DNA of 64,000 nucleotides from an uncultured Candidatus Rokubacteria bacterium (GTDB lineage: Bacteria > Methylomirabilota > Methylomirabilia > Rokubacteriales > CSP1-6), in NCBI GenBank assembly GCA_963762145.1, contig CAVXJS010000011.1, forward strand, positions 128,001-192,000, written 5' to 3'. Numbering within the stretch: position 1 is the first letter of the stretch; every line of letters begins with the position of its first letter. Made by a program: the position numbers and the translations under genes. The notes under the pieces were generated by a model. The model was not told the DNA's origin. It did no database searches and saw nothing but the letters and a program-made list of their open reading frames with translations. This document shows positions 40,312-64,000 of the stretch, piece by piece.

Positions 40312-40365
40312 TCCGGGGTGGGCCGGCCCCCGCAACCCCTCGCGGCGTATGGTATGATCCCCCCT

Positions 40366-42178
<1,813 letters not shown>

Positions 42179-42231
42179 CGGCCTGACGGAGCCACGCGGG
42201 CTGTCCGCCGAGCGCGGACTGTCCGCGGCCT

Positions 42232-49063: not shown

Positions 49064-51211
49064 CTAGCCCCCGGTGCGGAGGAAGAAGAAGTCGCCGCCC
49101 TCGTGGCCCGCGTACTTGATGGGGGCGTACTCCGGCACCTGGGGTACCGCCCAGCGCTGCGCCATCGCGTTGACCCGCAGCTGCACCCGCTGGAACACAT
49201 CGCGTCCGAGCAGGACGCCGTCGTTCGTCCGGAGCGTCTCGATGAAGATCTGGGCAAACACGGAGTGGGCGCCTCCGGTGTTGTCGAGCACCGGCTCCAC
49301 CCCGCCGGACGTCAACACCAGTCGCGCCCGCTTGTTGGCGAGATTCTGGACCGCGCGGGCGAGCTCTTCCTCGGTCATCGCCGGCTCGAGGCGACCGGAG
49401 GCCGAGCGGGTCAGGGTCGCCGCGTAACACGAATCGGCCACGACCAGCAGGTGCTTGACCGCCATGAGGTTGAGGATGTCGCTCAGATCGATGTTGGAGA
49501 TCCAGTTCGCGGTGTTGCCGGGCTCGGCATCGGTCGGCAGCCAGTAGCCCCGCTGGTTCTTCTGGTCCAGCTCTCCGTGCCCCGCGTAGTAGATCAGCAG
49601 GTTGTCCTTGTCGGTGAGCCGTTGCCGGAGGTCGTTCAGCTCGGAGAGGATCTGGGTCCGCGTCGCGTTGCGCAGGAGCTTCACCTTGAAGCCGTAGCGA
49701 TCTCGCAGGATGCCGGCGATCACCTCGGCGTCGTTGACCGCGGTCTGGAGACGCTTGAATCCCTTGTACTCGTTGTTCCCGATGACGAGCGCGTGATAGG
49801 TCCCGAGCGTCAGCTGCGGAGCCGGCCGGGCCGGCCGCTCGCCCTCGGCGGCGGGACCGGAGCTCGACACCCGGACCCGGTTGGGGACGATCATCTCGAG
49901 GGTCGCCTTGCGCCGGGACCGGTCCAGCGCGAGGACCGTCACGCGCTCGCCCTCCGTCCCCTTGAGCGGCACCCGCGCCTTGAAGAAGCCGTCGCGGTCG
50001 ACGACCTCCTCGCGATCGTTGATGGTCAGCGACTGCAGGCCCCCCGCGGCCTTGACCTTCCCGGCCAGCAACAGCGTGGGGCCGGCGCCGGCGGTCCGGG
50101 TCGGCTGGACGCGGATGTCGCGCGTCAACGCGACGAGCTGGGGCTCGACGATCTGCACCTGGGTGAGCTCGATCTCGGGGCCCGCCTGCTCGCGCTCCCG
50201 GCGGAGCTGATCGAATCCGGCCCGTTGCGCCGCCGAGTCCGCTTCGGTGCGCGCGAGCTGCTCGCGCAGGCGGAGGATCTCGCGATCCTTCTCGGATTGC
50301 TGGCGGCCGGAGTCCTCCTGGGCGCGCGCCAGGCGGGCCTGGAGGGCGCTCGTCTCGCGCTCCTTGTCGCGGAGCCGGGTTTCCGACTCCCCGATCGCCC
50401 GCTGCAGGTCGTTGAGGCGCGTCATCGCGGCCGCGTCGGTGCCCTGGACGGCGGCGCGCTCGCGGCGGAGTCGGTCCAGCTCGGCGCGCGCCGTCTGGGT
50501 GTCCCCCTGGAGCTGGGCGAGGCTCTTGCGCGCCTCGGCGAGACTCCGCTGGTTCTGATCGAGCTCCGCCTGCTTGGCTTGCAGGTCGGCGCGCAGCGTC
50601 TCGACCTGCGCCTCCAGCCGGCGGACGTCGCTCTGCGACGCGCCGGAGGTATTGACCGCGACGCTCGATGCGCCGGTCGCGCGGCCGTACCATTGCGCCG
50701 CCTGCTTCGGGTCCTTCGGGACGCCGAGCCCGTTCTCGTAGAGCACCCCGAGACTCAGCGCGGCCGGCGCAAAGCCTTGCTCGGCCGCGCGGCGGTACCA
50801 TTGCGCGGCGGCCGCGTAGTCCGGGGCGACGCCCAGCCCCTTCTCGTAGATCTCTCCCACGTAGGTCTGCGACTTGGCGTCGCCTCGCTGCGCTGCGTCC
50901 ATCCAGACCTGCAACGCGGTCTTGTAGTCCGCGCGGTCGTAGGCGACGTACTCGCCGCCTCGGATCTCGCAGTCGCGCGCGGTGGTCTTCTCGCCCCGCC
51001 GCGCGCCCAGATAGGTGACCTGGTTGCCGAGCCGGCGAATCTGCCCGGGCAGGAGGCAATCGACGACCAGGAATGCATCCGCGGCCTGGCCGGGCGTCGC
51101 CGGGCGTGGCTCCGCCGCCTTGGGGGCCGGCGCCGGCGCGCAGCTCAGCGCGACGAGCGACAGCATGGCGACGCCGATCCCGCGAATGGTCAGCGCCACG
51201 CGCGGGCTCAC
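49064..51211 (-). CDS. Lipoprotein with SEL1 repeats, coiled coil and caspase-like peptidase C14 domain
   Basis: Lipobox ALSC; SEL1 (G.IYEKGLGV..DY..AAQWYRRAAEQG); ALVIGNNEY, YYAGHG, ADSC dyad; GGVEPV.D..HSVF. Confidence 0.9.
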   Translation of the reverse strand: MSPRVALTIRGIGVAMLSLVALSCAPAPAPKAAEPRPATPGQAADAFLVVDCLLPGQIRRLGNQVTYLGARRGEKTTARDCEIRGGEYVAYDRADYKTALQVWMDAAQRGDAKSQTYVGEIYEKGLGVAPDYAAAAQWYRRAAEQGFAPAALSLGVLYENGLGVPKDPKQAAQWYGRATGASSVAVNTSGASQSDVRRLEAQVETLRADLQAKQAELDQNQRSLAEARKSLAQLQGDTQTARAELDRLRRERAAVQGTDAAAMTRLNDLQRAIGESETRLRDKERETSALQARLARAQEDSGRQQSEKDREILRLREQLARTEADSAAQRAGFDQLRREREQAGPEIELTQVQIVEPQLVALTRDIRVQPTRTAGAGPTLLLAGKVKAAGGLQSLTINDREEVVDRDGFFKARVPLKGTEGERVTVLALDRSRRKATLEMIVPNRVRVSSSGPAAEGERPARPAPQLTLGTYHALVIGNNEYKGFKRLQTAVNDAEVIAGILRDRYGFKVKLLRNATRTQILSELNDLRQRLTDKDNLLIYYAGHGELDQKNQRGYWLPTDAEPGNTANWISNIDLSDILNLMAVKHLLVVADSCYAATLTRSASGRLEPAMTEEELARAVQNLANKRARLVLTSGGVEPVLDNTGGAHSVFAQIFIETLRTNDGVLLGRDVFQRVQLRVNAMAQRWAVPQVPEYAPIKYAGHEGGDFFFLRTGG

Positions 51212-52239
51212 CGGCTGATCTCCAGCTCGATCATGGCGCGGGCCTGTTCGCGCAGCGGGATCGACTTGGCGGCCACGTTGATGTCGCGGGTGACGCGAGA
51301 CACGCGATCGGTCGTCGAGGGAAACACCGCGCCGGGCGAGGAGAAGTCGGTCGCGAGGAACAGCACCGGCTTGAGGGTCAGCAGGGCGTAGACGAGCTCC
51401 ACGCCGGGAGGGCCCTTCAGCTCGAGCTCGTAGCTATCGGTGGCCTCGGGGATCCGGTACGTGCGTCCCGCCTTGACGCCGTGCCCCCCGGAGAAGCGGT
51501 TGGGATAGAGAATCGTCACTTCCCCGCTCGTCCCGACGTTCACGATGGTGAGGAACGCGTCCCGATTGGACTCGAAGCCGAGGCTCAGTCGCTCGCCGAC
51601 ACGGTACTTCGACTTGTCCGCCCAGAGCCTCACCGTGACGCCATCATCGCCGGCCGCCTTGGGCGCCGACGCGGGCGGGGGAGCGGGCGCGGCCGGGGCG
51701 GCGGGCGTGGGAGCGGCGCCGGCCGCCGACGCCTTCGTATCGACGAAGAAGCCCGTTTCCTTCTGCTCGGGCCCGCCTCCGCGAGTTGCAGGGCCCATCC
51801 GCTCGACCGTGGTCGTCACCGCGTACCATCCTTCGGCCGCGTCCCGGGGCACGTCCACCCGGTACTCGCTCAGGACGTTGCCGCCCGGTCGCGCGATCAC
51901 GCGCTCGATCCGTGCCAGGACGAGGCCGTCGTAGCGAATGATCCGGGTTTCTCGGACCTGGCTGGACTCCGGGACCTCATAGCTCGCCCGGAGCGTGGCC
52001 GCTTCCCCCGGCTGCAGTCGGGGCCGTTGCACCGCGGTCTCGCCGAGGGCCAGCTGCTTGGTGCCAGATCGGGTGGTCACGTTGGTGTCCCGATACTGTC
52101 CGGCTTGCCAGCCCCCTTGGGCGAGGGCGAAACTTTTGCGTAGCAGGACCGCGGGAACGAGGGCCAGGGCCAGCAGGCCGGCGATCACCCCGAATCGGAG
52201 GAGTCGTTCGAACCGGCGGGCGACACGGGGGACGGGCAT
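51208..52239 (-). CDS. Exported DUF4384-domain protein
   Basis: N-terminal hydrophobic helix; YRVGE.L......DAFL.IVNV..SG.VT.LYPN, P.GVE. Confidence 0.8.
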   Translation of the reverse strand: MPVPRVARRFERLLRFGVIAGLLALALVPAVLLRKSFALAQGGWQAGQYRDTNVTTRSGTKQLALGETAVQRPRLQPGEAATLRASYEVPESSQVRETRIIRYDGLVLARIERVIARPGGNVLSEYRVDVPRDAAEGWYAVTTTVERMGPATRGGGPEQKETGFFVDTKASAAGAAPTPAAPAAPAPPPASAPKAAGDDGVTVRLWADKSKYRVGERLSLGFESNRDAFLTIVNVGTSGEVTILYPNRFSGGHGVKAGRTYRIPEATDSYELELKGPPGVELVYALLTLKPVLFLATDFSSPGAVFPSTTDRVSRVTRDINVAAKSIPLREQARAMIELEISR

Positions 52240-52288
52240 CGTCTTCCTCTCGGAAGGGGCTCCCGCAAGCGCAGCCCCAACGCGATTT

Positions 52289-52354
52289 ACACTACGTCGG
52301 CCCGATGCGGGGAGTCAAGCTAGCTTGACTCCCCGTCAGGTGCTCTACTACTCT
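52289..52354. promoter_or_regulatory. Perfect 28-bp palindrome with divergent sigma70-like promoters
   Basis: cggggagtcaagctagcttgactccccg (52308-52335); TTGACT-N18-TACTCT (+) and TTGACT-N18-TAGTGT (-). Confidence 0.7.
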
Positions 52355-52480
52355 GCGGTTTACTAGGCTATCTAGGCTCACCGGAGGGCAGGGGACGCTT
52401 GGGATCGGGTGCTCGTTGCGATTGAAGCGTCGTACTGCCGGCGACTCGCGGCTCGGCGCCGCACCTTCCGCTGAGAGCGC

Positions 52481-55400
52481 ATGATCTATCTCAAGCATGT
52501 CGAGGGAAGCAAGCGCGGCCAGGTCGAGGAGTTCGATCTCGAGCGCATTCGCATCGGACGCCACCCCGACAACGATCTGAAGTTCGATCCCGGTGCGGAC
52601 CGGGAGGTCTCCGGCCACCACGCCGAGATCCTCTGTCAGGGAGAGCAGGTCTCGATCCGCGATCTCCAGAGTCGCAACGGCACCCTGGTCAACGGGCGCC
52701 GGATCAATCAGACGACGGTCCTCCGGCACGGGGACGCCATTCAGTTCGCGCCCACCGGCCCCAAGGTCATCTTCTCGCTGGGCGAAGCCGAGTCGGGCAC
52801 CGGCACGATGGTGATCGATCGCGATCAGGTCGTCGCCGCATCCCGGTCGGCCCCCGAGCCGGCGGCCCCGGCCGCGTCCCGGCCCTCGGCCGCGCCGCGC
52901 CGGAAGACCTTCGTGCTGGCCGGCTTGATCGTGGTGCTCCTGCTGGTGGTCGCGCTCCTCGCCGTCGCCGCTTGGCGCTCGTGGACCCTCTTCTTCGTGC
53001 TCCTGGGTGTGGTCGTGCTCCTGGCCATCGCGGGCGCGGTCACGTGGTGGTGGACGCGGAAGCGTGCCGGGACCGCGGCGTCGCACGCCGACGCGAGCCG
53101 GCGGGCCGGCGACGAGCCCGGTCCCGCGCCGGGCGAAGCGACCGGGGACACGATCCGGGAGCTGCGGGCGAAGTGGAGCCAGGCCCTGGCCCGGCTGCGC
53201 GGCTCCAAGCTCGGGGGGCCGGACGACGACGCGGTGGGGGCGCTGCCGTGGCTCGTGGCGCTCGGCGAGCGCGGATCGGGGAAGAGCGAGCTCATCAGGG
53301 CCGGCAATCCGCCGGCGTCCGTCTCGACGGTCCGGCAGGCGGTCTCGGGGACCCGAACGTGCGACTGGTGGTTCTTCGACGGCGCCGTGATCCTCGACAC
53401 GCCCGGACGGTATGCCTTCCCGGTCGACGCGCGGGGCGACGGGCGTGAGTGGGAGGAATTCCTCTCGCTGCTGCGCGGCGCGCGACCGGTCGACCCCCTC
53501 AACGGCGTCATCGTCACGGTGGCGGCCGACTCCCTCGCGGCCCGGTCGGCCGCGAGCCTCAAGGACGAGGCCACCCAGATACGCCGGCGGCTCGACCACC
53601 TGACCCGGCGGGTGGGAGTGAGACCGCCCATCTATCTGGTCGTGACCAAGATCGACCTGCTGGCCGGCTTCCGGGAGTTCTTCGCCGACGTGCCCGAGGC
53701 GCACCGCAGCCAGGCCATGGGCTGGGTCAGCGAGGACGGGCGTGAGGAAGCCCCGGGGAGCCTCTTCGTCCGGGCGGTCGACACCGTCGCCAGACAGCTC
53801 GATCGCCTGCGCCTCTCCGTCCTGGACCGACGGGACACCGATGCGCAGGTCGGGCGCCGGTTCCTGTTCCCCGAGGAGTTCCGGGCCCTCGCGCGACCCC
53901 TCCATGCCTTCGGCGAGGCCCTGCTTCGCGCCAATCAGTACGATGAGACTCCCTGGTTCCGGGGCGTGTTCTTCACCTCGGCGCCGGGCGACGGGGCGCC
54001 CTCCTCGTACCTGGCCCGGACCCTGGGCCTGGAGGACGGCGTGCCGTCGGCGGGGTCGCGCGCGGCCGGCTCCCTCTTCGTCCGCGATCTGTTCGGCGCG
54101 ATCCTGCCGAAGGACCGCGAGCTGGTGCGGCGCACCGGAGCCACGCGCCATCGCCACCGTGGCGGCCGCCAGAAGGCCCTCTACGCCGTCGGCGCCGGCG
54201 CGGCGGTCCTGTCGCTGTTGCTGACGGTCTCCTTCGTCCGGAACTCGCGGGCTCTCGCCCGCCTCGACGTGAGCCCCTGTCTCGGGTCGGCGGGATCCGC
54301 CGCGGGCGCCACGCTGGGCGGCCGCCTCGAGCGCCTCGACCGGTGTCGGAACACGCTGGCGACGCTCGTACCCCACGGCTTCTGGGCCCGCGCCACGACC
54401 GACTTCTGGCTCCGTCAGGCCGAGCGTCTCGAGGGCCCCATCGCACGCCGGTACGTGGAGGTATTCAAGGTCGAGGTCGAGGGGCCGATCGATGGAGCCG
54501 TCGATCGCGCGCTCGCGCCGGGGCCGAAGGCCCCCGTCGTCGTCGGCGCGGTGCTCCAGCGGATCGCGCTGGTCGGCCGATGCCGGACCGACGGCCGCTG
54601 CCCGACCGACGACGCCGGCGCCTGGCCCAGCTATCGCACGCTCCTCGGCGCCGCGGAGCCCAGGGCCCAGGACAACGAGGAGACCGTGAAGGCCCTCCGG
54701 CGGACTCACGCCGCGTACCTGGAGCTGCACGCCGATCCCGCTGCCCTCGACGAGATGCGCGCCCGCGACGTGGCCCGCGTCAGTCGATGGCTGAGCGCGG
54801 GCGGGTTGCGGACCGAGTGGGTCCTCGCGTCCGCCACCAGTCAGTTCGCGCCGGTGCGCTCGCGAGATTTCTGGGCGTGGGACGGTCCGCTCCAGGTCGA
54901 CGCGCCGTTCACCGGCCGGGCCTGGGGCGAGGCCATCCAACCGCTGACGCAGGGCCTGCGAGCCCTCGCGCCGAACGCGGCCGACGTGCGTGACGCGGTC
55001 GCGCGATTCGAGAACGACTACCGCACCGAGGCACTGCGTCAGTGGGGGCAGTTCCTGATCGGCTTCCCGCAGGAAGAGCGGGTGCTGGGCGGGCGGCGCG
55101 GGTCGCGCGATCTCGCGGTGCGGTCCCTCGAGGCGGAGTCGCCGTATCGACGCGTGCTCGACCAGGCCGCCGCCGATGTCGGCGCGATCGTCGGCCCGGC
55201 TCGCGGCGACGCCGACCTGCCGGCCTGGGCCGGCACGCTGCTGCGCTACGCGGCGCTGCGCAAGATGGCGGCGAGTCCGCCGCCCGCGCCCGGACAGAGG
55301 CCGGCCGACCCGAAGGCGCAGCCCACGGAGGCCGAGCGTCTGGCGATGGGGTACGTCAAGGGATACGGCGAGGCCCTGGATCAGCTCAAGGGCGAGCTGG

Positions 55401-55885
55401 GCGGTCCGGAGAAGGCCTACGCCTCGGTTCAGAAGGTGTTCGACGAGGGAGAGTCGAGCGAGCGGAGCGTGCACCCGGTGCACAAGACCCTCTGGAATCT
55501 GCGCGCCCTCCGCAACCAGATCGGCGCGCGTCAGGGCGACGACCGCATCGTGTGGGATCTGCTCTCCCGGCCGGTCACCCTGGTGTGGCGGACCATGCTC
55601 GGGGAGGCCGCTCAGCAGGTGCAGGGCGTGTGGGAGGCGATGATTCCGGGGCTCACGGGTCTGACCCCGGGCCTCCAGGCCACCCGGATCATCGAGTTCG
55701 CCAACACCGGGCCCGCGGGGCCGCTACTCGAGCGGTCGAGAGATCGGTACGTGGTGCGCCGCTTCCTCGGGGAGGGCGCCCCGCTGTCACCGGGCTTCGT
55801 CGATTTCATCTCGCGCATTCGCACGATGCCGGTCGAGCGCCTGGACAAGATCGACCCGCCACGCCTCATCGTCACATCCTCATGA
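52481..55885 (+). CDS. tssM: FHA domain fused to T6SS membrane subunit TssM/IcmF
   Basis: FHA: IGRHPDND..VSGHHA..DLQSRNGTLVNG. Then 2 TM, LPW..LGERGSGKS, CDWWF, DTPGRY, PLNGVIV, YLVVTKIDLLAGF, RGVFFTS. Confidence 0.9.
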   Translation: MIYLKHVEGSKRGQVEEFDLERIRIGRHPDNDLKFDPGADREVSGHHAEILCQGEQVSIRDLQSRNGTLVNGRRINQTTVLRHGDAIQFAPTGPKVIFSLGEAESGTGTMVIDRDQVVAASRSAPEPAAPAASRPSAAPRRKTFVLAGLIVVLLLVVALLAVAAWRSWTLFFVLLGVVVLLAIAGAVTWWWTRKRAGTAASHADASRRAGDEPGPAPGEATGDTIRELRAKWSQALARLRGSKLGGPDDDAVGALPWLVALGERGSGKSELIRAGNPPASVSTVRQAVSGTRTCDWWFFDGAVILDTPGRYAFPVDARGDGREWEEFLSLLRGARPVDPLNGVIVTVAADSLAARSAASLKDEATQIRRRLDHLTRRVGVRPPIYLVVTKIDLLAGFREFFADVPEAHRSQAMGWVSEDGREEAPGSLFVRAVDTVARQLDRLRLSVLDRRDTDAQVGRRFLFPEEFRALARPLHAFGEALLRANQYDETPWFRGVFFTSAPGDGAPSSYLARTLGLEDGVPSAGSRAAGSLFVRDLFGAILPKDRELVRRTGATRHRHRGGRQKALYAVGAGAAVLSLLLTVSFVRNSRALARLDVSPCLGSAGSAAGATLGGRLERLDRCRNTLATLVPHGFWARATTDFWLRQAERLEGPIARRYVEVFKVEVEGPIDGAVDRALAPGPKAPVVVGAVLQRIALVGRCRTDGRCPTDDAGAWPSYRTLLGAAEPRAQDNEETVKALRRTHAAYLELHADPAALDEMRARDVARVSRWLSAGGLRTEWVLASATSQFAPVRSRDFWAWDGPLQVDAPFTGRAWGEAIQPLTQGLRALAPNAADVRDAVARFENDYRTEALRQWGQFLIGFPQEERVLGGRRGSRDLAVRSLEAESPYRRVLDQAAADVGAIVGPARGDADLPAWAGTLLRYAALRKMAASPPPAPGQRPADPKAQPTEAERLAMGYVKGYGEALDQLKGELGGPEKAYASVQKVFDEGESSERSVHPVHKTLWNLRALRNQIGARQGDDRIVWDLLSRPVTLVWRTMLGEAAQQVQGVWEAMIPGLTGLTPGLQATRIIEFANTGPAGPLLERSRDRYVVRRFLGEGAPLSPGFVDFISRIRTMPVERLDKIDPPRLIVTSS

Positions 55886-55907
55886 AAGGCTTCGAGCGAA
55901 CAACGCC

Positions 55908-57245
55908 ATGACGCAATCGGGCAAGGTCGTATGGGGTGAGGGCATGTTCCTCACGCCCCATCTCTTCCAGCAGGCGGATCGCCATCACGAGCACGTGCTC
56001 GACTTCCGGCTGCGCGCGGTCGTTCCGTTCGGCTGGGGCTTCGTCGAGCTGGAGCTGGACGACGAGGCGGTGACCAACGGCGACATCGCGGTTCGGCGCT
56101 GCGCGGGCGTGCTGCCGGACGGGCTCGTCTTCCAGGTGCCGCAGCCCGACCGCGGCCCGAGCAGCCGCTCGATCAAGTCGCACTTCTCCGTCTCGACCGA
56201 CCGCGTGTCGGTCTACCTGGCGTTGCCGGTGGTCCGCGAGGGGACGAACGTGCGCCTCGACGGCGCGGGAGGCGGGCCGCCCACGCGATACGAGACCGAG
56301 ATGGTCCGGGTCGCGGACGAGACGGCCGAGGACAACGAAGGCGAGATCCCGTTCGCGCGGAAGAACTTCCGGCTGCTCTTCTCCGGCGAGGCGCTCGACG
56401 ACACCGTCTCCATGAAGCTGGGGGAAGTCACCCGGACCGAGTCGGGGGCGTTCCGGCTGTCCGAGTCGTTCGTGCCCGCCTCGCTGACGATCCGCTCGTC
56501 TCCCCGGCTTCTCGCGATGCTGCGCGAGGTGCTGGAGCTGCTGAGCGCCCGGAGCACCTCCCTCGGGTCCCAGCGACGCCATCTCGCCGACTTCTCGCAG
56601 TCCGACATGGCCACGTTCTGGCTCCTGCACACCGTCAACTCCTGGATCCCGCTGCTCGCCCACATCGCGGCGTCTCCCGACCATCATCCCGAGCGGGTGT
56701 ACGTGGCGTTCGCTCAGCTCATCGGCCAGCTCTCGAGCTTCGCCCTCGACAGCGATCCCCGGGACGTGCCGGTGTACGACCACGATCGCCTGGGCGACGT
56801 CTTCAGCGAGCTGGTCCGCCGGATCCGCACCCTCCTCGACACGGTCATCCCGATCCGGTACGTGATCATCCCGCTCGTGCGGACCCGGGACCTCCTGCAC
56901 GTGGGGCGGGTCGAGGACGAGCGGCTGCTCCAGACCGCCCAGTTCTATCTGGGGGCGGACGCCAAGATGCCCGCCGGCCGGCTCGTGGAGGAGCTTCCCG
57001 CCAAGTCCAAGATCAGCTCCCCGGACCACGTCGGCGACCTGATCGGGCGCGCGGTGCCCGGGGTGGAGCTGCTGCACGAGCCGGTCCCGCCGGCCGCGAT
57101 TCCGGTGCGCGCGGGCTTCAAGTACTTCCAGCTGAGCCGGCACGGGCGCGCGTGGGAAGCCATCAACCGGGCCAAGGCGCTGGCGCTGTATCTGCCCGAT
57201 GACTTCCCGGAATTGAAGCTTGAATTAGTCGCTATAAAGTCGTAG
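55908..57245 (+). CDS. tssK: T6SS baseplate subunit TssK
   Basis: VVWGEGMFLTPHLFQQ.DR, WGF, HPE, YDHD. Confidence 0.95.
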   Translation: MTQSGKVVWGEGMFLTPHLFQQADRHHEHVLDFRLRAVVPFGWGFVELELDDEAVTNGDIAVRRCAGVLPDGLVFQVPQPDRGPSSRSIKSHFSVSTDRVSVYLALPVVREGTNVRLDGAGGGPPTRYETEMVRVADETAEDNEGEIPFARKNFRLLFSGEALDDTVSMKLGEVTRTESGAFRLSESFVPASLTIRSSPRLLAMLREVLELLSARSTSLGSQRRHLADFSQSDMATFWLLHTVNSWIPLLAHIAASPDHHPERVYVAFAQLIGQLSSFALDSDPRDVPVYDHDRLGDVFSELVRRIRTLLDTVIPIRYVIIPLVRTRDLLHVGRVEDERLLQTAQFYLGADAKMPAGRLVEELPAKSKISSPDHVGDLIGRAVPGVELLHEPVPPAAIPVRAGFKYFQLSRHGRAWEAINRAKALALYLPDDFPELKLELVAIKS

Positions 57246-57303
57246 GTTAGGCTACCTTGAGCGCGGCACCGAGCGGCTTGCCACAGGCGGGATAGAGGCG
57301 CCG

Positions 57304-58386
57304 ATGTCCTCACCGGAGACCGTCGATTTCGAGTCGCTCCTCGCCCCCATTCCCGGGGACAAGCCGGGGGGAGAGTCCATCCGCTATGCCGGCCCCTACG
57401 ACGCGATCGAGGACGCACGGCGGGCCGACGACGAGCTGACCCAGGGGGACTGGCAGCGCGACACGAAGACGTCGGACTGGCGCCGCGTCGTCGATCTCGC
57501 GGGCGACGCGCTCTGCAAGCGCAGCAAGGATATCCAGGTCGCGGCGTGGATGACCGAGGCGCTCATCCGCCTGCACGGCTTCGCCGGCCTGCGCGACGGC
57601 AGCCGCCTCCTGCGCGAGCTGAGCGAGCGATTCTGGGACCATCTCCATCCCGAGGCGGAGGGGGACGATCTGGAGGGCCGCGCCGGGCCCATCGAATGGA
57701 TGAACCAGCGCCTGCCCGAGGCGGTGCGCTTCGTGGCGATCGCTCAGTCGAGCCAGGGAGACAAGTACGGGTGGTGGCACTGGCAGGAGTCCCGCTCCGT
57801 CGACAACCTCGGCCGGACCAACCCGGAGGCGAAGGCCGCCGCGCTGGCCGAGGGGAAGATCTCGGGCGAGGATTTCGACAAGGCGGTGGGGACGCTCCGG
57901 CGCGTCCACTACGAGCAGGTCTTCGCGGACGTCACGCAGGCGGGCGAGCAGATCCAGGCCTTGATCGCGGAGGTCGATACCCGCTTCGGACGGAACGCGC
58001 CGAGCCTCGTCGCGCTGAAGCAGGCCGCCGAGGACTGCCGCGCGCTCGTCGAGACGATCGTCAAGCGGAAGCGGGAGCTCGAGCCCGACGCGGCGACGAG
58101 CGAGGCCGCGCCGGGCGAGGAAGCGCCCAGCGCGACGGGCCGCCGGGGCGCCGCCCTGGGCGATCGAGCGGCCGCGCTGCAGCAGCTCGCCGAGGTCGCG
58201 GCGTTCTTTCGCCGCACCGAGCCGCACAGCCCCGTGTCCTATCTGGTACAACGAGCCGTGCAGTGGGGGCACATGCCGCTGGAGAACTGGCTCCGTGACG
58301 TCATCAAGGACGAGACCGTCCTGGCCAATCTCCGCGATACGCTGGGTCTGAAGGAAGGGGCTCCGGGGGCGGACAGCGCTCCCTAG
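57304..58386 (+). CDS. tssA: T6SS protein TssA (ImpA family)
   Basis: LLAPI...PGG, SKDIQ, FW..LHP, FFRRTEPHSPVSYL..RA..WG. Confidence 0.95.
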   Translation: MSSPETVDFESLLAPIPGDKPGGESIRYAGPYDAIEDARRADDELTQGDWQRDTKTSDWRRVVDLAGDALCKRSKDIQVAAWMTEALIRLHGFAGLRDGSRLLRELSERFWDHLHPEAEGDDLEGRAGPIEWMNQRLPEAVRFVAIAQSSQGDKYGWWHWQESRSVDNLGRTNPEAKAAALAEGKISGEDFDKAVGTLRRVHYEQVFADVTQAGEQIQALIAEVDTRFGRNAPSLVALKQAAEDCRALVETIVKRKRELEPDAATSEAAPGEEAPSATGRRGAALGDRAAALQQLAEVAAFFRRTEPHSPVSYLVQRAVQWGHMPLENWLRDVIKDETVLANLRDTLGLKEGAPGADSAP

Positions 58387-58414
58387 AGCCTGAGTTCACC
58401 AAGGAGGAGTTGCC

Positions 58415-58944
58415 ATGGCGCGAGAGAGTACACAGCACAAGCTGGACCGTGTAAGGCCGCCGCGGGTGCAGATCACCTACGACGTCGAGACGGGTGACGC
58501 GATCGAGATGAAGGAGCTACCCTTCGTTCTCGGCGTGCTCGCGGACCTGTCCGGGAAGCCCGAGGAGCCCCTGCCACGCCTGAGGGACCGCAAGTTCGTC
58601 GAGATCGACCGCGACAACTTCGACGCGGTGATGCGCGGCATGAAGCCGCGCCTGGCGTTCCGGGTCGACAACAAGCTCAGCGACGACAACACCCAGATGG
58701 CCGTCGAGCTGAAGTTCAACTCGCTCGAGGACTTCGAGCCGGAGCAGGTCGTCCGGCAGGTCGAGCCCCTCCGCAAGCTGCTGGAGACGCGCCAGCAGCT
58801 GCAGGCGCTGCTGGCCAAGATGGACGGCAACGACAAGCTGACGACAAGCTGCAGGAGATCATCAGCAACACCGACATGCTGAAGAAGATCGGCAGCGAGG
58901 TCGGGGCGGGCGAGGACGGGAAGGAGGGCCGGGGCAATGGCTAA
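58415..58944 (+). CDS. tssB: T6SS sheath small subunit, 1-nt deletion near 58840
   Basis: RPPRVQITYDVE, ELPFVLGVLADLSG; shifted frame continues DDKLQEIISN to TAA at 58942-58944. Confidence 0.93.
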
Positions 58945-60427
58945 CGAGGCGAAGGGCGCCAAGTCCCAGTCGGCCGAAGCGGCCAGTCAGGAAGCGAGCC
59001 TGCTCGACCAGGTCATCGGCCAGACCCGCTCGCGCAACGACGAGCAGCGCGAGGAATCCCGGCGGCAGATCTCGACGCTGGTCGAAGAGGTGATGCAGGG
59101 CACTGAAGATCTCGAAGGATCTCGAGACCACGATCAATGCCCGCATCGCGGAGATCGATCAGCTCCTGACCAAGCAGCTCAACGAGATCCTGCACCAGCC
59201 GGAGTTCCAGAAGCTGGAGGCCTCGTGGCGCGGGCTGCACTACTGGTGCACGAGAGCGAGACCGAGCACGATGCTCAAGATCCGCGTGCTCAACGTCTCG
59301 AAGGAGGACCTGCTCCGCGACCTCGAGCGCGCGGTCGAGTTCGACCAGAGCGCGCTCTTCAAGAAGGTCTACGAGGAGGAGTACGGCACCTTCGGCGGCG
59401 CCCCCTTCGCGGCGCTGATCGGCGACTACGAGTTCTCGCGCGACGAGCCCGGACATCGGCGCTGCTCGAGAAGATCTCGAACGTGGCGGCGGCGCGCCCA
59501 CGCGCCGTTCATCGCCGCGGCCGCGCCCGAGCTGTTCAACCTGGACAGCTTCACCGAGCTCGACCGCGCCGCGCGACCTGGCCAAGATCTTCGAGAGCGT
59601 CGAGTACGCCAAGTGGAAGTCGTTCCGGGAGTCCGAGGACTCCCGCTACGTGGGCCTGTGCCTGCCCCACATCCTGATGCGCCTGCCCTACGGCCCCGAC
59701 ACGATCCCGGTCGAGGCGTTCAACTTCGAGGAGGACGTCGACGGCCGCGACCACAGCAAGTACCTGTGGGGCAACGCGGCCTACGCGCTGGCCACCCGGC
59801 TCACCAGCTGCCTTCGCCAAGTACGGCTGGTGCGCGGCCATCCGCGGCGTGGAGGGCGGCGGCCTGGTCGAGGGCCTGCCGACCCACACCTTCCAGACCG
59901 ACGAGGGCGACGTCGCGCTGAAGTGCCCGACCGAGATCGCGATCACCGACCGGCGCGAGAAGGAGCTGGCGGACCTCGGGCTTCATCCCGCTGGTGCACT
60001 GCAAGGGCACCGACTACGCGGCGTTCTTCGGCGCCCAGTCGGCGCAGAAGCCGAAGAAGTACGACACCGACGCGGCCAACGCCAACGCGCGGCTCTCGAC
60101 GCAGCTGCCGTACATCCTGGCGATGTCGCGCTTCGCCCACTACCTGAAGGCGATCATGCGCGACAAGATCGGCAGCTTCATGTCCCGCGCCGACGTGCGA
60201 GTACTTCCTGAACCGCTGGATCACGAACTACGTGACCCTCGACGACGACGCCAGCCCGCCTCAAGGCCCAGAAGCCGCTGCGCGAGGCGCGGATCGAGGT
60301 GTCCGAGGTCGCCGGCAAGCCGGGGGTGTACCAGGCGGTGGCGTTCCTGCGGCCGCACTTCCAGCTCGACGAGCTGTCGGTGTCGCTGCGGCTGGTGGCC
60401 GAGCTGCCGCAGTCGACGCGCAAGTAG
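58937..60427 (+). CDS. tssC: T6SS sheath large subunit, multiple frameshifts (assembly error or pseudogene)
   Basis: Fragments across three frames: FQKLEASWRGL, EFDQSALFKKVYEEEYGTFGG, YLWGNAA, KCPTEIAITDRRE, SRFAHYLK, LRPHFQLDEL. Confidence 0.9.
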
Positions 60428-60464
60428 TGTTCACAACTCACGTACGGGAGGCGGAGGCGAGAAA

Positions 60465-60950
60465 ATGGCCGCGGTAGACTACTTTCTGAAGCTCAAGGGA
60501 ATCGATGGTGAGTCGGAGGACTCGAAGCACAAGGCCGAGATCGACGTCGAGTCCTGGTCGTGGGGCGAGTCCAACTCGGGCACCCACTCCGGCGGCGGCG
60601 GGGGCGGCGCCGGCAAGGTGGCGATGCAGGACTTTCACTTCACGATGAAGGTCAACAAGGCGTCACCGAAGCTGTTGCTGGCCTGCGCCAACGGGGAGCA
60701 CATTGCGGACGCGAAGCTCACCTGTCGCAAGGCCGGCAAGGAGCAGCAGGAGTACCTGATCTTCAAGTTCACCGACCTGCTGGTCTCCTCGTACCAGACC
60801 GGTGGTTCTCACGGCGATCTGGTGCCGACTGACCAGATCTCCTTGAATTTCGCGAAGGTCGAGGTGGAGTACAAGCCGCAGAACACCGACGGTTCGCTGG
60901 GCGGCTCGATCAGCGCCGGCTACGACCTGAAGAAGAACAAACAGGTCTGA
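60465..60950 (+). CDS. hcp: T6SS tube protein Hcp
   Basis: YFLKLKGIDGESED..HK.EIDV.SWSWG, KASPKL..AC..G.HI, GYDLK.NK. Confidence 0.97.
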   Translation: MAAVDYFLKLKGIDGESEDSKHKAEIDVESWSWGESNSGTHSGGGGGGAGKVAMQDFHFTMKVNKASPKLLLACANGEHIADAKLTCRKAGKEQQEYLIFKFTDLLVSSYQTGGSHGDLVPTDQISLNFAKVEVEYKPQNTDGSLGGSISAGYDLKKNKQV

Positions 60951-60967
60951 TCCCTCCGGAAGAGGAT

Positions 60968-61001
60968 CGGAACCGGCGCGTCGGGAGACGCGCCGGTTCC
61001 G
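60968..61001 (+). terminator. Perfect 15-bp hairpin after hcp (terminator or mRNA stabiliser)
   Basis: cggaaccggcgcgtc-GGGA-gacgcgccggttccg; no U-tract. Confidence 0.6.
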
Positions 61002-61016
61002 GCCATTCAGGGCCCA

Positions 61017-61763
61017 ATGTCGCCGCGACGCCAGGACGAACCGAACATCGTGCCGTCCGTGCTGGATCGGTTGCTGGGCGACGAGCGGAGATCGGCTCGC
61101 CCGCAGCTGTCCGCCGACTCGGAGCTGGACGCGCTATGGGTTCGCCTGCTCGACGCGGCCGCCACCCGGCTCCGGCCGGAAGTGATCGACGCGTGGGTGC
61201 GGCCGTGTCGTCTCCTCGCGGTGGAGGGTGATCGGTGGCGCGTCGTGGTCCCCGACCGTCTGCTTCGCGACCGTCTCGTCCAGAGCTACCAGGAGGCCCT
61301 CCAGGACTCCGCGGCTGACGTCGCGGGGGGCAAGGTCCGTCTCGCCTTCAGCGTCGACACCGCCCTCGGCAGCTACGGGATCCGGGAGCTCAAGCGGGCG
61401 GTGGCCCGGGACCTGGAGGCCTTGCTCAACACCCGGCAGGAGGCGCTCGACGAGCTGCCGGAATCGCTCGAGGAGGTCCGGCGCTCACTCGTCACCTACG
61501 GCCTGCCGGACTTCACCGCGGCGAGCCTGCAGAGCTCGCGTGACCGGGCGCGCATCCGCCGCGCTCTCGAGGACACCATCGCCGCCTTCGAGCCCCGCCT
61601 GGACCGGGTCCGCATCGAGCTCGAGGACTCCGAGGGCAACGAGCGGGCGATGCGCTTCCGCGTCGAGGGCTGGTTGCGCCTCGAGCCCACGCCGGAACCG
61701 GTCGCCTTCGACACGGTGCTGCAGCTCACCACCCGCGAATATACCGTGCAGGGCCGGGACTGA
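61017..61763 (+). CDS. tssE: T6SS baseplate subunit TssE with inserted DnaA-N-like domain
   Basis: PSVLDRL, then about 80 aa insert, then VARDLEALLNTR, YGLPD, FEPRL. Confidence 0.9.
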   Translation: MSPRRQDEPNIVPSVLDRLLGDERRSARPQLSADSELDALWVRLLDAAATRLRPEVIDAWVRPCRLLAVEGDRWRVVVPDRLLRDRLVQSYQEALQDSAADVAGGKVRLAFSVDTALGSYGIRELKRAVARDLEALLNTRQEALDELPESLEEVRRSLVTYGLPDFTAASLQSSRDRARIRRALEDTIAAFEPRLDRVRIELEDSEGNERAMRFRVEGWLRLEPTPEPVAFDTVLQLTTREYTVQGRD

Positions 61764-63574
61764 TGGCCGACGAGATCCTCACGTACTACGAGCGGGAGCT
61801 GTCCTTCCTTCGGCAGACCGGGGCCGAGTTCGCGGCGAGCTATCCCAAGATCGCCAGCCGCCTGCTCCTGGAGGCGGACAAGTGCGAGGACCCCCACGTC
61901 GAGCGCCTGATCCAGGCGTTCGCGTTCCTGGCCGCCCGCATCCGCTACAAGCTCGACGACGATTTCCCCGAGATCACCGACTCGCTCCTCAGCGTGCTGT
62001 ACCCGCACTATCTCGCTCCGGTGCCGTCGATGGCGATCGTGCAGTTCGTCCTGGACGCCGAGCGCGGAAAGCTCACCGAGCCGTTCCGCATCGCCCGGGG
62101 CGCGAAGCTCTTCTCGCCGCCGGTGAGCGGCGCGCCGTGCCGGTTCCGCACCGCCTACCCGGTGACGCTGTGGCCCTTGACCGTCACCTCGGCACGCCTG
62201 GGCGCGGCCGACGGCCTCGGCGCCTCCAAGCGGGCGGTCTCGGTCATCCGTCTCGGCCTGCGTGCCCAGGGGGGCACCTCGATCGCCGGGCTGCGTCCAG
62301 AAGCGCTGCGCTTCTTCCTGCACGGGGAAGGGCACCAGACCTGGCCGCTGTACGAGCTGCTCTGCAACAACGTCCGCGAGGTGCATCTCCGTCCCGGCGC
62401 CGGGCGCCCCGCCCCGCCGATCCGCCTCGGGCCCGAGTGCATCCGGCCGGTGGGCTTTGCCGCCGACGAGGGGCTGCTGCCGTACGGCCCCCGGTCCTTT
62501 CTCGGATACCGGCTCCTGCACGAATACTTCGCGTTTCCCGAGAAGTTCCTCTTCGTCGACGTGACCGGTCTGGACGCCGCCGCGAAGGCGGGCTTCGGGG
62601 AGGAGCTCGAGATCCTGATCTTCCTCGACCACATGCCGCAGCTGGGCGACGTCGTCGCGCCGAGCACGTTCCGCCTCGGCTGTGTGCCGGTGGTCAACAC
62701 CTTCGAGCAGATCGCCGAGCCCATCCGGGTGAGCCAGACCGACTCGGAATACCGGGTGGTGGTCGACGGGCGACGGCAGGATGCCACCGAGGTGTACTCG
62801 GTGGATTCGGTGGTGAGCGTCTCCCCCGACGACCCGCAGCCACTCGTCTACCGTCCGTTCTACTCGTTCAAGCACGAGATGGACCAGGACCAGCAGCGGA
62901 CCTTCTGGTACGCCACCCGCCGCGCATCCGATCGCAAGGGCGACGCGGGCACCGAGGTGTACCTGTCGCTGGTGGACCTGGACTTCAAGCCATCGAGACC
63001 GCCCGCCGATACGCTCACCGTGCACGTGACCTGCACGAATCGCGATCTGCCCGCCCGGCTGCCGTTCGGGGGCGAGCGCGGCGTGCTCGAGCTGGAGGGG
63101 GCCGCGCCCCTGTCGCGGATCCTCTGCCTGACGAAGCCGACCACGGTGGCCCGCCCGCGCATGGGCCGGGGCGCCCAGTGGCGCCTGATCTCTCACCTCT
63201 CCCTGAACTACCTGTCGATCTGCGACGGCGGCCGCGAGGCCCTGCAGGAGATCCTGCGACTGTACGACTTCTCGGGCTCCCCGGTCGTGCGGCAGCAGAT
63301 CGCGGGCATCCTCGACGTCAGGAGCCGCCGGGTGGTGGGCCGTCCGGGCTCGATGCCCTGGAACGGCTTCTGCCGCGGCCTCGAGGTGACCGTCGATCTC
63401 GACGAGGAGCAGTACGTCGGCACCGGCGTCTACCTGTTCGCGTCGGTGCTCGAGCGGTTCTTCGGCCTGTACTCGTCCCTCAACTCGTTCACCCAGCTCG
63501 TCGCGCGGACCCGTCAGCGCAAAGAGCCCCTCAAGCGATGGCCTCCGAGAGCCGGCGAACAGATCCTTCTGTAG
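61763..63574 (+). CDS. tssF: T6SS baseplate subunit TssF
   Basis: YYERELSFLR..G.EFA..YPKIA.RL, DPHVERLI, GYRLLHEYF.FPEKF, WRLISHLSLNYLS. Confidence 0.97.
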   Translation: MADEILTYYERELSFLRQTGAEFAASYPKIASRLLLEADKCEDPHVERLIQAFAFLAARIRYKLDDDFPEITDSLLSVLYPHYLAPVPSMAIVQFVLDAERGKLTEPFRIARGAKLFSPPVSGAPCRFRTAYPVTLWPLTVTSARLGAADGLGASKRAVSVIRLGLRAQGGTSIAGLRPEALRFFLHGEGHQTWPLYELLCNNVREVHLRPGAGRPAPPIRLGPECIRPVGFAADEGLLPYGPRSFLGYRLLHEYFAFPEKFLFVDVTGLDAAAKAGFGEELEILIFLDHMPQLGDVVAPSTFRLGCVPVVNTFEQIAEPIRVSQTDSEYRVVVDGRRQDATEVYSVDSVVSVSPDDPQPLVYRPFYSFKHEMDQDQQRTFWYATRRASDRKGDAGTEVYLSLVDLDFKPSRPPADTLTVHVTCTNRDLPARLPFGGERGVLELEGAAPLSRILCLTKPTTVARPRMGRGAQWRLISHLSLNYLSICDGGREALQEILRLYDFSGSPVVRQQIAGILDVRSRRVVGRPGSMPWNGFCRGLEVTVDLDEEQYVGTGVYLFASVLERFFGLYSSLNSFTQLVARTRQRKEPLKRWPPRAGEQILL

Positions 63575-64000
63575 AAGAGCTCCTCTTCGACGAGGGGTTC
63601 CGGTTCGAGTTCTTCCAGGCGGTGCGCCTGCTGGAGCGGGTGTTCCCGGAGCGCGGGCCGGTCGGGCGCGACGTGCGCCCGGGCGAGGAGATCGTCCGGT
63701 TCCGGGCGCACAACTCGCTGACCTTCCCGCCCAGCTCGATTCACGATCTGTCCCGCACGGACGGCGAGGGGCCCGCCTCGATGGTCGTCGCCTTCATGGG
63801 GCTGACGGGTCCCTCGGGCGTGCTACCCCGGCACTACACCGAGATGGTGCTCGAGGAGGAGCGGCGCCGCGAGCACGGCCTCGCCGGCTTCTTCGACGTC
63901 TTCAATCACCGGATGATCTCTCTCTTCTACCGCGCGTGGCAGAAGTATCGCGTTCCGATCGCTCACGAGCAGGCGCGCCGGCCGGGGGCGGCGCCGGACC
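63538..64000 (+). CDS. tssG: T6SS baseplate subunit TssG (partial, runs off window)
   Basis: MASESRR..FEFFQAVRLLE, FMGLTGPSGVLPRHYTE, FFDVFNHR..SLFYRAW.KY. Confidence 0.93.
   Translation, partial: MASESRRTDPSVEELLFDEGFRFEFFQAVRLLERVFPERGPVGRDVRPGEEIVRFRAHNSLTFPPSSIHDLSRTDGEGPASMVVAFMGLTGPSGVLPRHYTEMVLEEERRREHGLAGFFDVFNHRMISLFYRAWQKYRVPIAHEQARRPGAAPD

Follow-up and report, generated by a model that had tools for sequence, protein, structure and literature searches.

A lineage-restricted type VI secretion system from a Rokubacterium, with an FHA domain on TssM and without its TssJ-binding end

Two defining features of the membrane complex in a canonical subtype i type VI secretion system (T6SS-i) are the lipoprotein TssJ and the C-terminal beta-domain of TssM. 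Residues 931-1129 of E. coli TssM are essentially this beta-domain, and TssM contacts TssJ through its C-terminal domain (PMC3213119). Loss of TssJ is already known from Acinetobacter and from 27.5% of the non-Acinetobacter set of the same paper (PMC10564176), and the group 5 T6SS are without tssJ (PMC5813230). Here we describe a T6SS locus that fails both features. It begins near the end of a 64,000-nt stretch, which we call the window, of an uncultured Candidatus Rokubacteria bacterium (GCA_963762145.1; contig CAVXJS010000011.1, our C11, positions 128,001 to 192,000). The genome is 6.26 Mb in size and 88% complete, with a G+C content of 70%. The TssM of this locus carries an FHA domain and has lost its TssJ-binding end.

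Several described systems share part of this architecture. The locus resembles T6SS-i subgroup 4B2 (Ralstonia, Burkholderia and Xanthomonas; PMC5813230) in its TssC, which tentatively groups with that of Ralstonia, and in having the entire set of baseplate, sheath, tube and ClpV genes. Unlike the Ralstonia locus, which has a lipoprotein-tssK-tssL block, it has no TssJ that we could find, and its TssM has an FHA domain and no beta-domain. FHA genes are listed for T6SS groups 1, 3 and 5 and, in the excerpt of the survey used here, not for 4B (PMC5813230). In Agrobacterium, a group 5 system under PpkA-pTssL-Fha control, Fha binds phospho-TssL within the TssM-TssL complex (PMC3953482). That system also lacks tssJ and has a TssL with a peptidoglycan-binding domain and an FHA domain at the TssM-TssL complex, but its Fha is a separate protein and its sheath is of another group. 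Acinetobacter likewise has an outer membrane and no TssJ, but its TssM still has the beta-domain, complemented by a GS-linker and TsmK (PMC10564176), whereas here the beta-domain is deleted. In Citrobacter rodentium TssM1 the TssJ-binding domain is also outside the reading frame, but there the sequence for it lies downstream in another frame and is rescued by transcriptional slippage (PMC4256274); in our locus the tail is retained and tssK follows within about 50 nt. In Acidovorax, Fha starts an inside-first assembly (10.1101/2023.12.21.572528, PMC12607579). A search of mainly the open literature, without supplements and including excerpts of one review (PMC13584744), found no published FHA-TssM/IcmF fusion and no clade-wide deletion of the beta-domain; a single paper that mentions both type VI secretion and Rokubacteria appears to be unrelated.

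The features that carry the argument are given below. Coordinates are those of the window or, where prefixed L001, those of our record of the locus, which continues past the window end.

52481..55885, plus strand: tssM, encoding an FHA-TssM of 1134 aa (Pfam FHA and IcmF-related_N)
52481..52780, plus strand: FHA domain at the TssM N-terminus (Pfam, alignment and model)
52805..52816, plus strand: Thr109-x-x-Ile, a candidate phosphosite directly after the FHA domain (motif scan)
L001:11536-13329: Ser/Thr kinase with Pkinase and BON domains, adjoining tssL (Pfam)
L001:13331-14494: tssL fused to OmpA, with DotU and OmpA domains (Pfam)

The FHA residues G26, R27, S44, H47, N66, G67 and T68 show no variation among the family members (37/37), and the model of the domain matches FHA structures (Z score 18, root-mean-square deviation (rmsd) 1.0). 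The FHA domain is followed by two transmembrane helices, a cytoplasmic P-loop domain, a further transmembrane segment and an all-helical periplasmic part, and the Walker A glycines and lysine are conserved in 36-37/37. About 45 clusters combine FHA with IcmF-related_N, at 38-99% identity, and four full-length FHA-bearing representatives are among the best 150 matches in a 50%-cluster library. Their hosts are Methylomirabilota, Binatota, 'Deltaproteobacteria' and one 'Verrucomicrobia' metagenome-assembled genome (MAG); within the host genus, 3/21 genomes have an FHA-TssM. The genes tssK, tssA, tssB and tssC come after the FHA-tssM in every sufficiently long locus, the rare exceptions being a contig end or a gene that intervenes before hcp. 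No plasmid-collection record covers 80% of the TssM. The FHA-TssM is a real family, which forms a single small clade across Methylomirabilota, Binatota and related MAGs.

Alignment reveals an internal deletion in this family, in which the C-terminal beta-domain of about 135 residues is gone and the last Pro-x-x-Ile-Val tail is kept. All 20 complete FHA-TssMs end at one position and all 87 complete non-FHA relatives have 130-328 extra residues; because the profile derives from the FHA family, only the difference is informative, and the loci include near-duplicates. The final helices of the family profile align to residues 855-966 of E. coli TssM. An AlphaFold model of our TssM (pLDDT 80) has a helical periplasmic part and no C-terminal beta-sandwich, and it superposes on 6ixh over 310 residues (Z score 15, rmsd 5.0). 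The segment deleted in the FHA-TssMs aligns with the canonical IcmF_C, although weakly (hhalign E 0.0026, with a score of 26; 20 shuffles reached 21.7 at most). In a quick tree the TssMs without a beta-domain form one clade (support 100), which includes two proteins without FHA.

Each of the 11 FHA-TssM genomes has a single TssM, and none was found to encode the missing domain separately. Pfam IcmF_C has no match in any of the 11, an absence that alone is not diagnostic, as the sister clade is also unmatched (0/4); we therefore relied on profile-profile comparison and on a custom profile. The latter, which is blind to the canonical domain of one family genome (G111) and was built partly from tested genomes (5/9 positives), detected a beta-domain in 0/11 FHA-TssM genomes versus 9/10 sister genomes. 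A split-off beta-domain or a TssJ elsewhere in the host genome was also considered, and a search of that genome found none. Slippage of the Citrobacter type, supplying a frameshifted tail, was ruled out, since the tssK start lies within about 50 nt of the tssM stop in 24/25 loci and this gap leaves no room.

The second missing feature is TssJ itself. The PF12790 family was found in 0/11 genomes with an FHA-TssM versus 16/19 with sister TssMs, and TssJ-like genes in 0/20 FHA loci versus 71/87 sister loci. A sister-clade TssJ profile found none in the host genome, which encodes BamA (E 1e-50).

The T6SS-i gene set is otherwise present (TssA, B, C, E, F, G, K, Hcp, ClpV and VgrG, with B, C and H frameshifted here), and DotU was detected in 9/11 FHA-TssM genomes. 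In a quick tree of TssC rather than TssB, made from 52 of 94 sequences with sister rows thinned to one in three, our TssC falls with those of Ralstonia, Granulicella, Azospirillum and part of the Desulfobacterota systems (SH-aLRT 98). It is 66% identical to the TssC of Ralstonia, whose T6SS belongs to subgroup 4B2 (PMC5813230), and the assignment to subgroup 4B rests on this one 4B2 reference. The FHA-type TssCs form two supported groups and not one resolved clade. Eight TssCs from other host-family genomes form a separate clade. Among these, the membrane-complex region is visible only in G111, where TssM is canonical and TssJ has a match. Since the sheath groups with Ralstonia subgroup 4B2, it does not appear to represent a new subtype. 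By tail and baseplate, the system is a lineage-restricted variant of T6SS-i with a stripped membrane complex. An initial annotation of the window, made from the sequence alone, had proposed a lineage-specific T6SS and a sheath phylogeny as a check; the first is borne out in this restricted form, and the second tentatively places the sheath in a described subgroup. In the Granulicella plasmid T6SS (L235, NC_015057.1) we noted two tssK genes and no annotated tssJ.

Phosphothreonine gating of T6SS assembly is plausible because the FHA residues are invariant and a kinase gene is linked. T-x-x-hydrophobic motifs are FHA ligands, and such a motif follows the FHA domain in 26/37 family members (mean 6.5 and maximum 13 in 1000 shuffles). 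A kinase or PP2C gene lies within 9 kb upstream in 10/25 FHA-TssM loci, and a PP2C gene is linked in many relatives. On balance we favour the reading that this T6SS-i, with its beta-domain lost and no TssJ found, assembles from the inside out when phosphorylation by the linked Ser/Thr kinase is read by the FHA domain of TssM. The kinase would sense an envelope cue through its periplasmic BON domain and would phosphorylate TssM at Thr109, or TssL, or juxtamembrane threonines in the kinase itself. Contacts between FHA and phosphothreonine on neighbouring subunits would then drive formation of the TssLM ring, in place of nucleation led by TssJ, and the OmpA domain of TssL would anchor the ring to peptidoglycan. 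Baseplate and sheath would assemble normally, and the VgrG/PAAR spike would pass the outer membrane without the canonical TssJ-TssM cap. Such a switch would be akin to PpkA-pTssL-Fha in Agrobacterium (PMC3953482), with the reader fused to TssM, and the stripped membrane complex is probably phosphorylation-gated.

Two open questions about the T6SS are how its membrane complex engages the outer membrane and gets across it, and whether assembly begins outside-in through TssJ or inside-out through Fha. The clade may be regarded as a natural deletion-plus-fusion experiment, in which TssJ and its docking domain were removed and an FHA reader was welded onto TssM, and it offers a minimal construct and a candidate phosphosite, Thr109, for both questions.

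More tentatively, we suggest that this may be a functional T6SS, in a bacterium that has an outer membrane, without the whole TssJ-TssM outer-membrane interface, its ring formed by phosphorylation-driven self-polymerisation of FHA to TssM and served by a dedicated methyltransferase as a further accessory. If such an interface-free T6SS were true, the canonical outer-membrane cap would be dispensable for firing. The methyltransferase (L001:6822-8324, minus strand; C11:197822-199324) is a PKMT-like protein methyltransferase (PF10119) encoded inside the T6SS locus and close to Rickettsia PKMT1 (E 4.5e-75). PF10119 is found in 10/11 FHA-TssM genomes versus 0/36 family genomes without a detected T6SS, and weakly in 1/9 family genomes with another T6SS. 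In the sister clade it is found in 0/7 TssJ-positive genomes versus 2/2 TssJ-negative ones. It is possible that the enzyme is an accessory of TssJ-less systems; our literature search found no T6SS paper on a PKMT-like methyltransferase. A second methyltransferase gene (L001:9041-10525, minus strand; MTS, with DUF7059/DUF7782 in relatives) also occurs inside the unrelated T6SS loci of genomes G111 and G134.

Several observations weigh against assembly gated by phosphorylation on a TssM freed from TssJ. The Thr109 motif is absent from 11/37 family members, a motif of this kind is present in only 1/9 TssL N-termini, and there is no PP2C gene in the present locus. The sole PP2C match of the host is unlinked, on contig C17, where a separate cluster of FHA, Ser/Thr kinase and PP2C genes (C17:55968-59596) could provide a phosphatase. 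The sister-clade segment is only weakly homologous to the canonical beta-domain by sequence, with no PDB match and a Pfam match in 1/17 (E 0.089). Two TssMs inside the same clade, P0166 and P0167, lack both FHA and the beta-domain, so that FHA is not strictly needed as compensation. TssJ was not found in three sister genomes either, two of which retain the beta-domain, and a TssJ too divergent for PF12790 or for the sister-clade profile could escape detection. The 11 FHA-TssM genomes on which these counts depend are incomplete, related MAGs and not independent; the completeness of the host is as given above, and for eight no value is given.

Candidates for an outer anchor of another kind at this locus are among the following features, listed with the palindrome that lies among them.

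51208..52239, minus strand: predicted exported protein with a beta-rich N-terminal domain of unknown family and DUF4384 (Pfam)
52308-52335: perfect 28-nt palindrome (inverted repeat) between divergent genes
L001:10522-11400, minus strand: predicted lipoprotein near tssL, with a C-terminal domain similar to the N-terminal one of the DUF4384 protein
L001:14603-15814, plus strand: autotransporter barrel without a passenger

It is unlikely, although the best of the alternatives, that one of these unrelated envelope proteins (the DUF4384 protein, the downstream lipoprotein with its similar beta-rich domain, or the barrel) replaces TssJ, as TsmK was recruited in Acinetobacter (PMC10564176). In 9/25 loci, some of them at 43% TssM identity, the DUF4384 gene and tssM stand head-to-head. 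The related domain recurs in the lipoprotein near tssL both here and in genome G068, where the relative has a glycine zipper, SHOCT and SH3 and adjoins a CsgG-SHOCT gene. Barrel-like genes are present in several sub-lineages, as an autotransporter barrel next to tssL in this locus and in G015, and as the c21 family (L209:3204-4016 and relatives) in Binatota-like genomes. This latter family, a secreted protein that recurs at FHA-TssM loci, is probably an outer-membrane beta-barrel, from an ESM lead only. However, no single candidate is common to the clade. The full-length DUF4384 protein occurs in only 3/11 FHA-TssM genomes (and in 0/45 other family genomes, with partial matches in 2), and the autotransporter barrel accompanies the caspase gene described below in 11/22 caspase loci, of which 10 belong to genomes where no TssC was detectable.

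The palindrome is probably a pair of back-to-back -35 boxes or an operator. As a sigma-70 promoter it failed a consensus scan, and across the genome its core motif shows no enrichment (13 occurrences, where 13.8 were expected).

An improbable explanation is that the machine has given up its usual passage through the outer membrane and instead releases cargo into the periplasm or acts on the envelope of its own cell. Neither of the canonical outer-membrane contacts is left, Citrobacter requires the C-terminal domain for a functional T6SS (PMC4256274), and vgrG is present in a single copy in the genome. However, the sheath, tube and spike are ordinary, and contig C7, away from the T6SS locus, has a PAAR-like gene beside an adaptor-like one, an arrangement that ordinary antibacterial systems also show. 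The PAAR-like gene was matched through PAAR-like genes of related loci and not by Pfam. The segment C7:1-2172 holds this gene, the adaptor-like gene downstream of it and a further gene cut at the contig end, and is a possible effector locus.

The initial annotation had drawn attention to extra domains in TssM and TssE and to an exported caspase. Both extra domains are real. The features concerned are these.

61017..61763, plus strand: tssE, 248 aa, with an inserted domain (Pfam)
61116..61358, plus strand: complete DnaA domain I in the N-terminal loop of TssE (alignment and model)
49064..51211, minus strand: predicted lipoprotein with Sel1 repeats, a coiled coil and a caspase domain, Peptidase_C14 (Pfam)

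The TssE insert sits in the loop after the first helix. Its DnaA_N Pfam match is weak (E 3.5e-4, under the curated cut-off), but it is 29-52% identical to DnaA-type N-termini in relatives, and its model has a KH-like fold that matches DnaA domain I (PDB 4tps; TM-score 0.88, rmsd 1.8). An assembly chimera is ruled out by about 17 full-length clusters at 79-89% identity. In three pairwise comparisons the ratio of nonsynonymous to synonymous substitution rates (dN/dS) was 0.26-0.31 for the insert and 0.16-0.23 for the TssE core. The insert is real and under purifying selection, and it documents the recruitment of a replication-initiator domain into the baseplate wedge. Like DnaA domain I, it retains the equivalent of the dimerisation residue Trp6 (W41, in 7/7 inserts shown). 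Unlike DnaA domain I, it is embedded in TssE and its DiaA/DnaB-binding residues are replaced. In E. coli DnaA, Asn44, Phe46 and Trp50 bind DiaA, and Phe46 also binds DnaB (PMC5448010). By motif alignment the equivalents are D80, L82 and R86 in the insert, and N, F or Y, and W in most family DnaAs. Self-association appears the likeliest role. Most probably the insert is either a module for weak self-association or a passenger that is tolerated, and it is unlikely to be linked to replication.

Present in 3/10 distinct FHA-TssM loci with a visible tssE, the insert appears to be a recent, local add-on. The inserts form one clade among host-family DnaAs, apart from both host dnaA copies, with weak support; a derivation from the host's own dnaA is unsupported, although the placement is weak. 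The two dnaA-like genes of the genome are at C22:168448 and C19:71746, one of them in a dnaA-dnaN context and the other an orphan. The insertion site appears permissive, because an unrelated insert is found at the same site in three other TssEs (P0073, P0112 and P0120). These are 248-aa proteins in which the insert resembles a duplication of TssE's own helical part.

The caspase has an intact His/Cys dyad. Its gene lies within 9 kb upstream in 8/25 FHA-TssM loci. Among 120 family genomes, caspase homologues, some of them partial, occur in 22 and TssC in 10, with 4 shared (p=0.08, kin not being independent), so that 18/22 caspase genomes are without detectable TssC. Some of the loci in which the caspase gene adjoins an autotransporter-barrel gene also have a hydrolase. 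The passenger-less barrel and the Sel1-caspase, with the hydrolase and sometimes a kinase, are a recurring host-family module, mostly without a T6SS. Here the caspase gene is on one side of the T6SS and the barrel and hydrolase genes are on the opposite side, as if the T6SS cluster had settled inside this module. A core T6SS part was ruled out for the caspase, which is mostly beside a barrel gene in genomes without detectable TssC. It is a signalling module that lies next to the T6SS and for the most part does not depend on it, and the DUF4384 gene is more faithful to the T6SS locus.

Assembly had initially been proposed to be gated by phosphothreonine binding, periplasmic proteolysis and a DnaA-like module. 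The first part stands as plausible, but joint gating by FHA, caspase and DnaA-like domain is very doubtful. All three features are together here and in two genus-mates, the insert is constrained (dN/dS as above), and the caspase also has T6SS neighbours elsewhere, namely the FHA-TssM locus in G063 and another T6SS in G026. However, the insert and the caspase are each confined to the minority of loci given above, locus L129 has a caspase with a plain TssE (82.7% core identity), the G063 caspase lacks its catalytic Cys, and most caspase genomes have no detectable TssC. The three features therefore do not behave as one co-occurring system.

The remaining genes in the window are as follows.

55908..57245, plus strand: tssK (Pfam)
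57304..58386, plus strand: tssA, ImpA_N type, 360 aa (Pfam)
58415..58944, plus strand: tssB, with a frameshift near the 3' end in the present assembly
58937..60427, plus strand: tssC, with several frameshifts in the present assembly, unbroken in two genus-mates
60465..60950, plus strand: hcp (Pfam)
61763..63574, plus strand: tssF (Pfam)
63538..64000, plus strand: tssG, which runs beyond the window end (Pfam)

The frames of tssB, tssC and tssH are unbroken in the genus-mates G011 and G015. Sequencing indels are the likeliest cause of the frameshifts, because ftsH in the same window (40318-42186) is likewise divided over two frames. That the cluster is decaying, or that its features are assembly artefacts, is the least probable explanation, for although the frameshifts in tssB, tssC, tssH and the hydrolase gene fit it and count against our preferred reading, two genus-mates have unbroken copies of the genes, fusion and end point are unchanged across about 45 clusters from 38% to 99% identity, the split ftsH suggests sequencing indels, and tssE is under purifying selection.

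Pfam supports the gene order tsaE, caspase gene, DUF4384 gene, FHA-tssM, tssK, tssA, tssB, hcp, tssE, tssF and tssG, and tssC was identified from VipB matches in three pieces and by tblastn against a relative. Together with an inverted-repeat check for the palindrome, these agree with the order first given, as does the lack of tssJ or tssL beside tssK. The loss of the TssM beta-domain and the frameshifts in tssB, tssC and tssH were not part of that annotation. The genes for TssL-OmpA, Ser/Thr kinase, TssH and VgrG are 1-14 kb beyond the window end, where the locus comprises the remainder of tssG, tssH, vgrG, a gene for a 173-aa protein, the two methyltransferase genes, the lipoprotein gene, the kinase gene, tssL-OmpA, the barrel gene and a broken hydrolase gene. 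Of the genes that had been suggested for a search downstream, tssH, vgrG, tssL and a ppkA-type kinase gene are thus present, and tssJ and a linked pppA-type PP2C gene were not found there. Directly downstream of the locus (L001:17244-18140, minus strand) is a calpain-family gene (Peptidase_C2); G015 has a closely related gene in the corresponding position.

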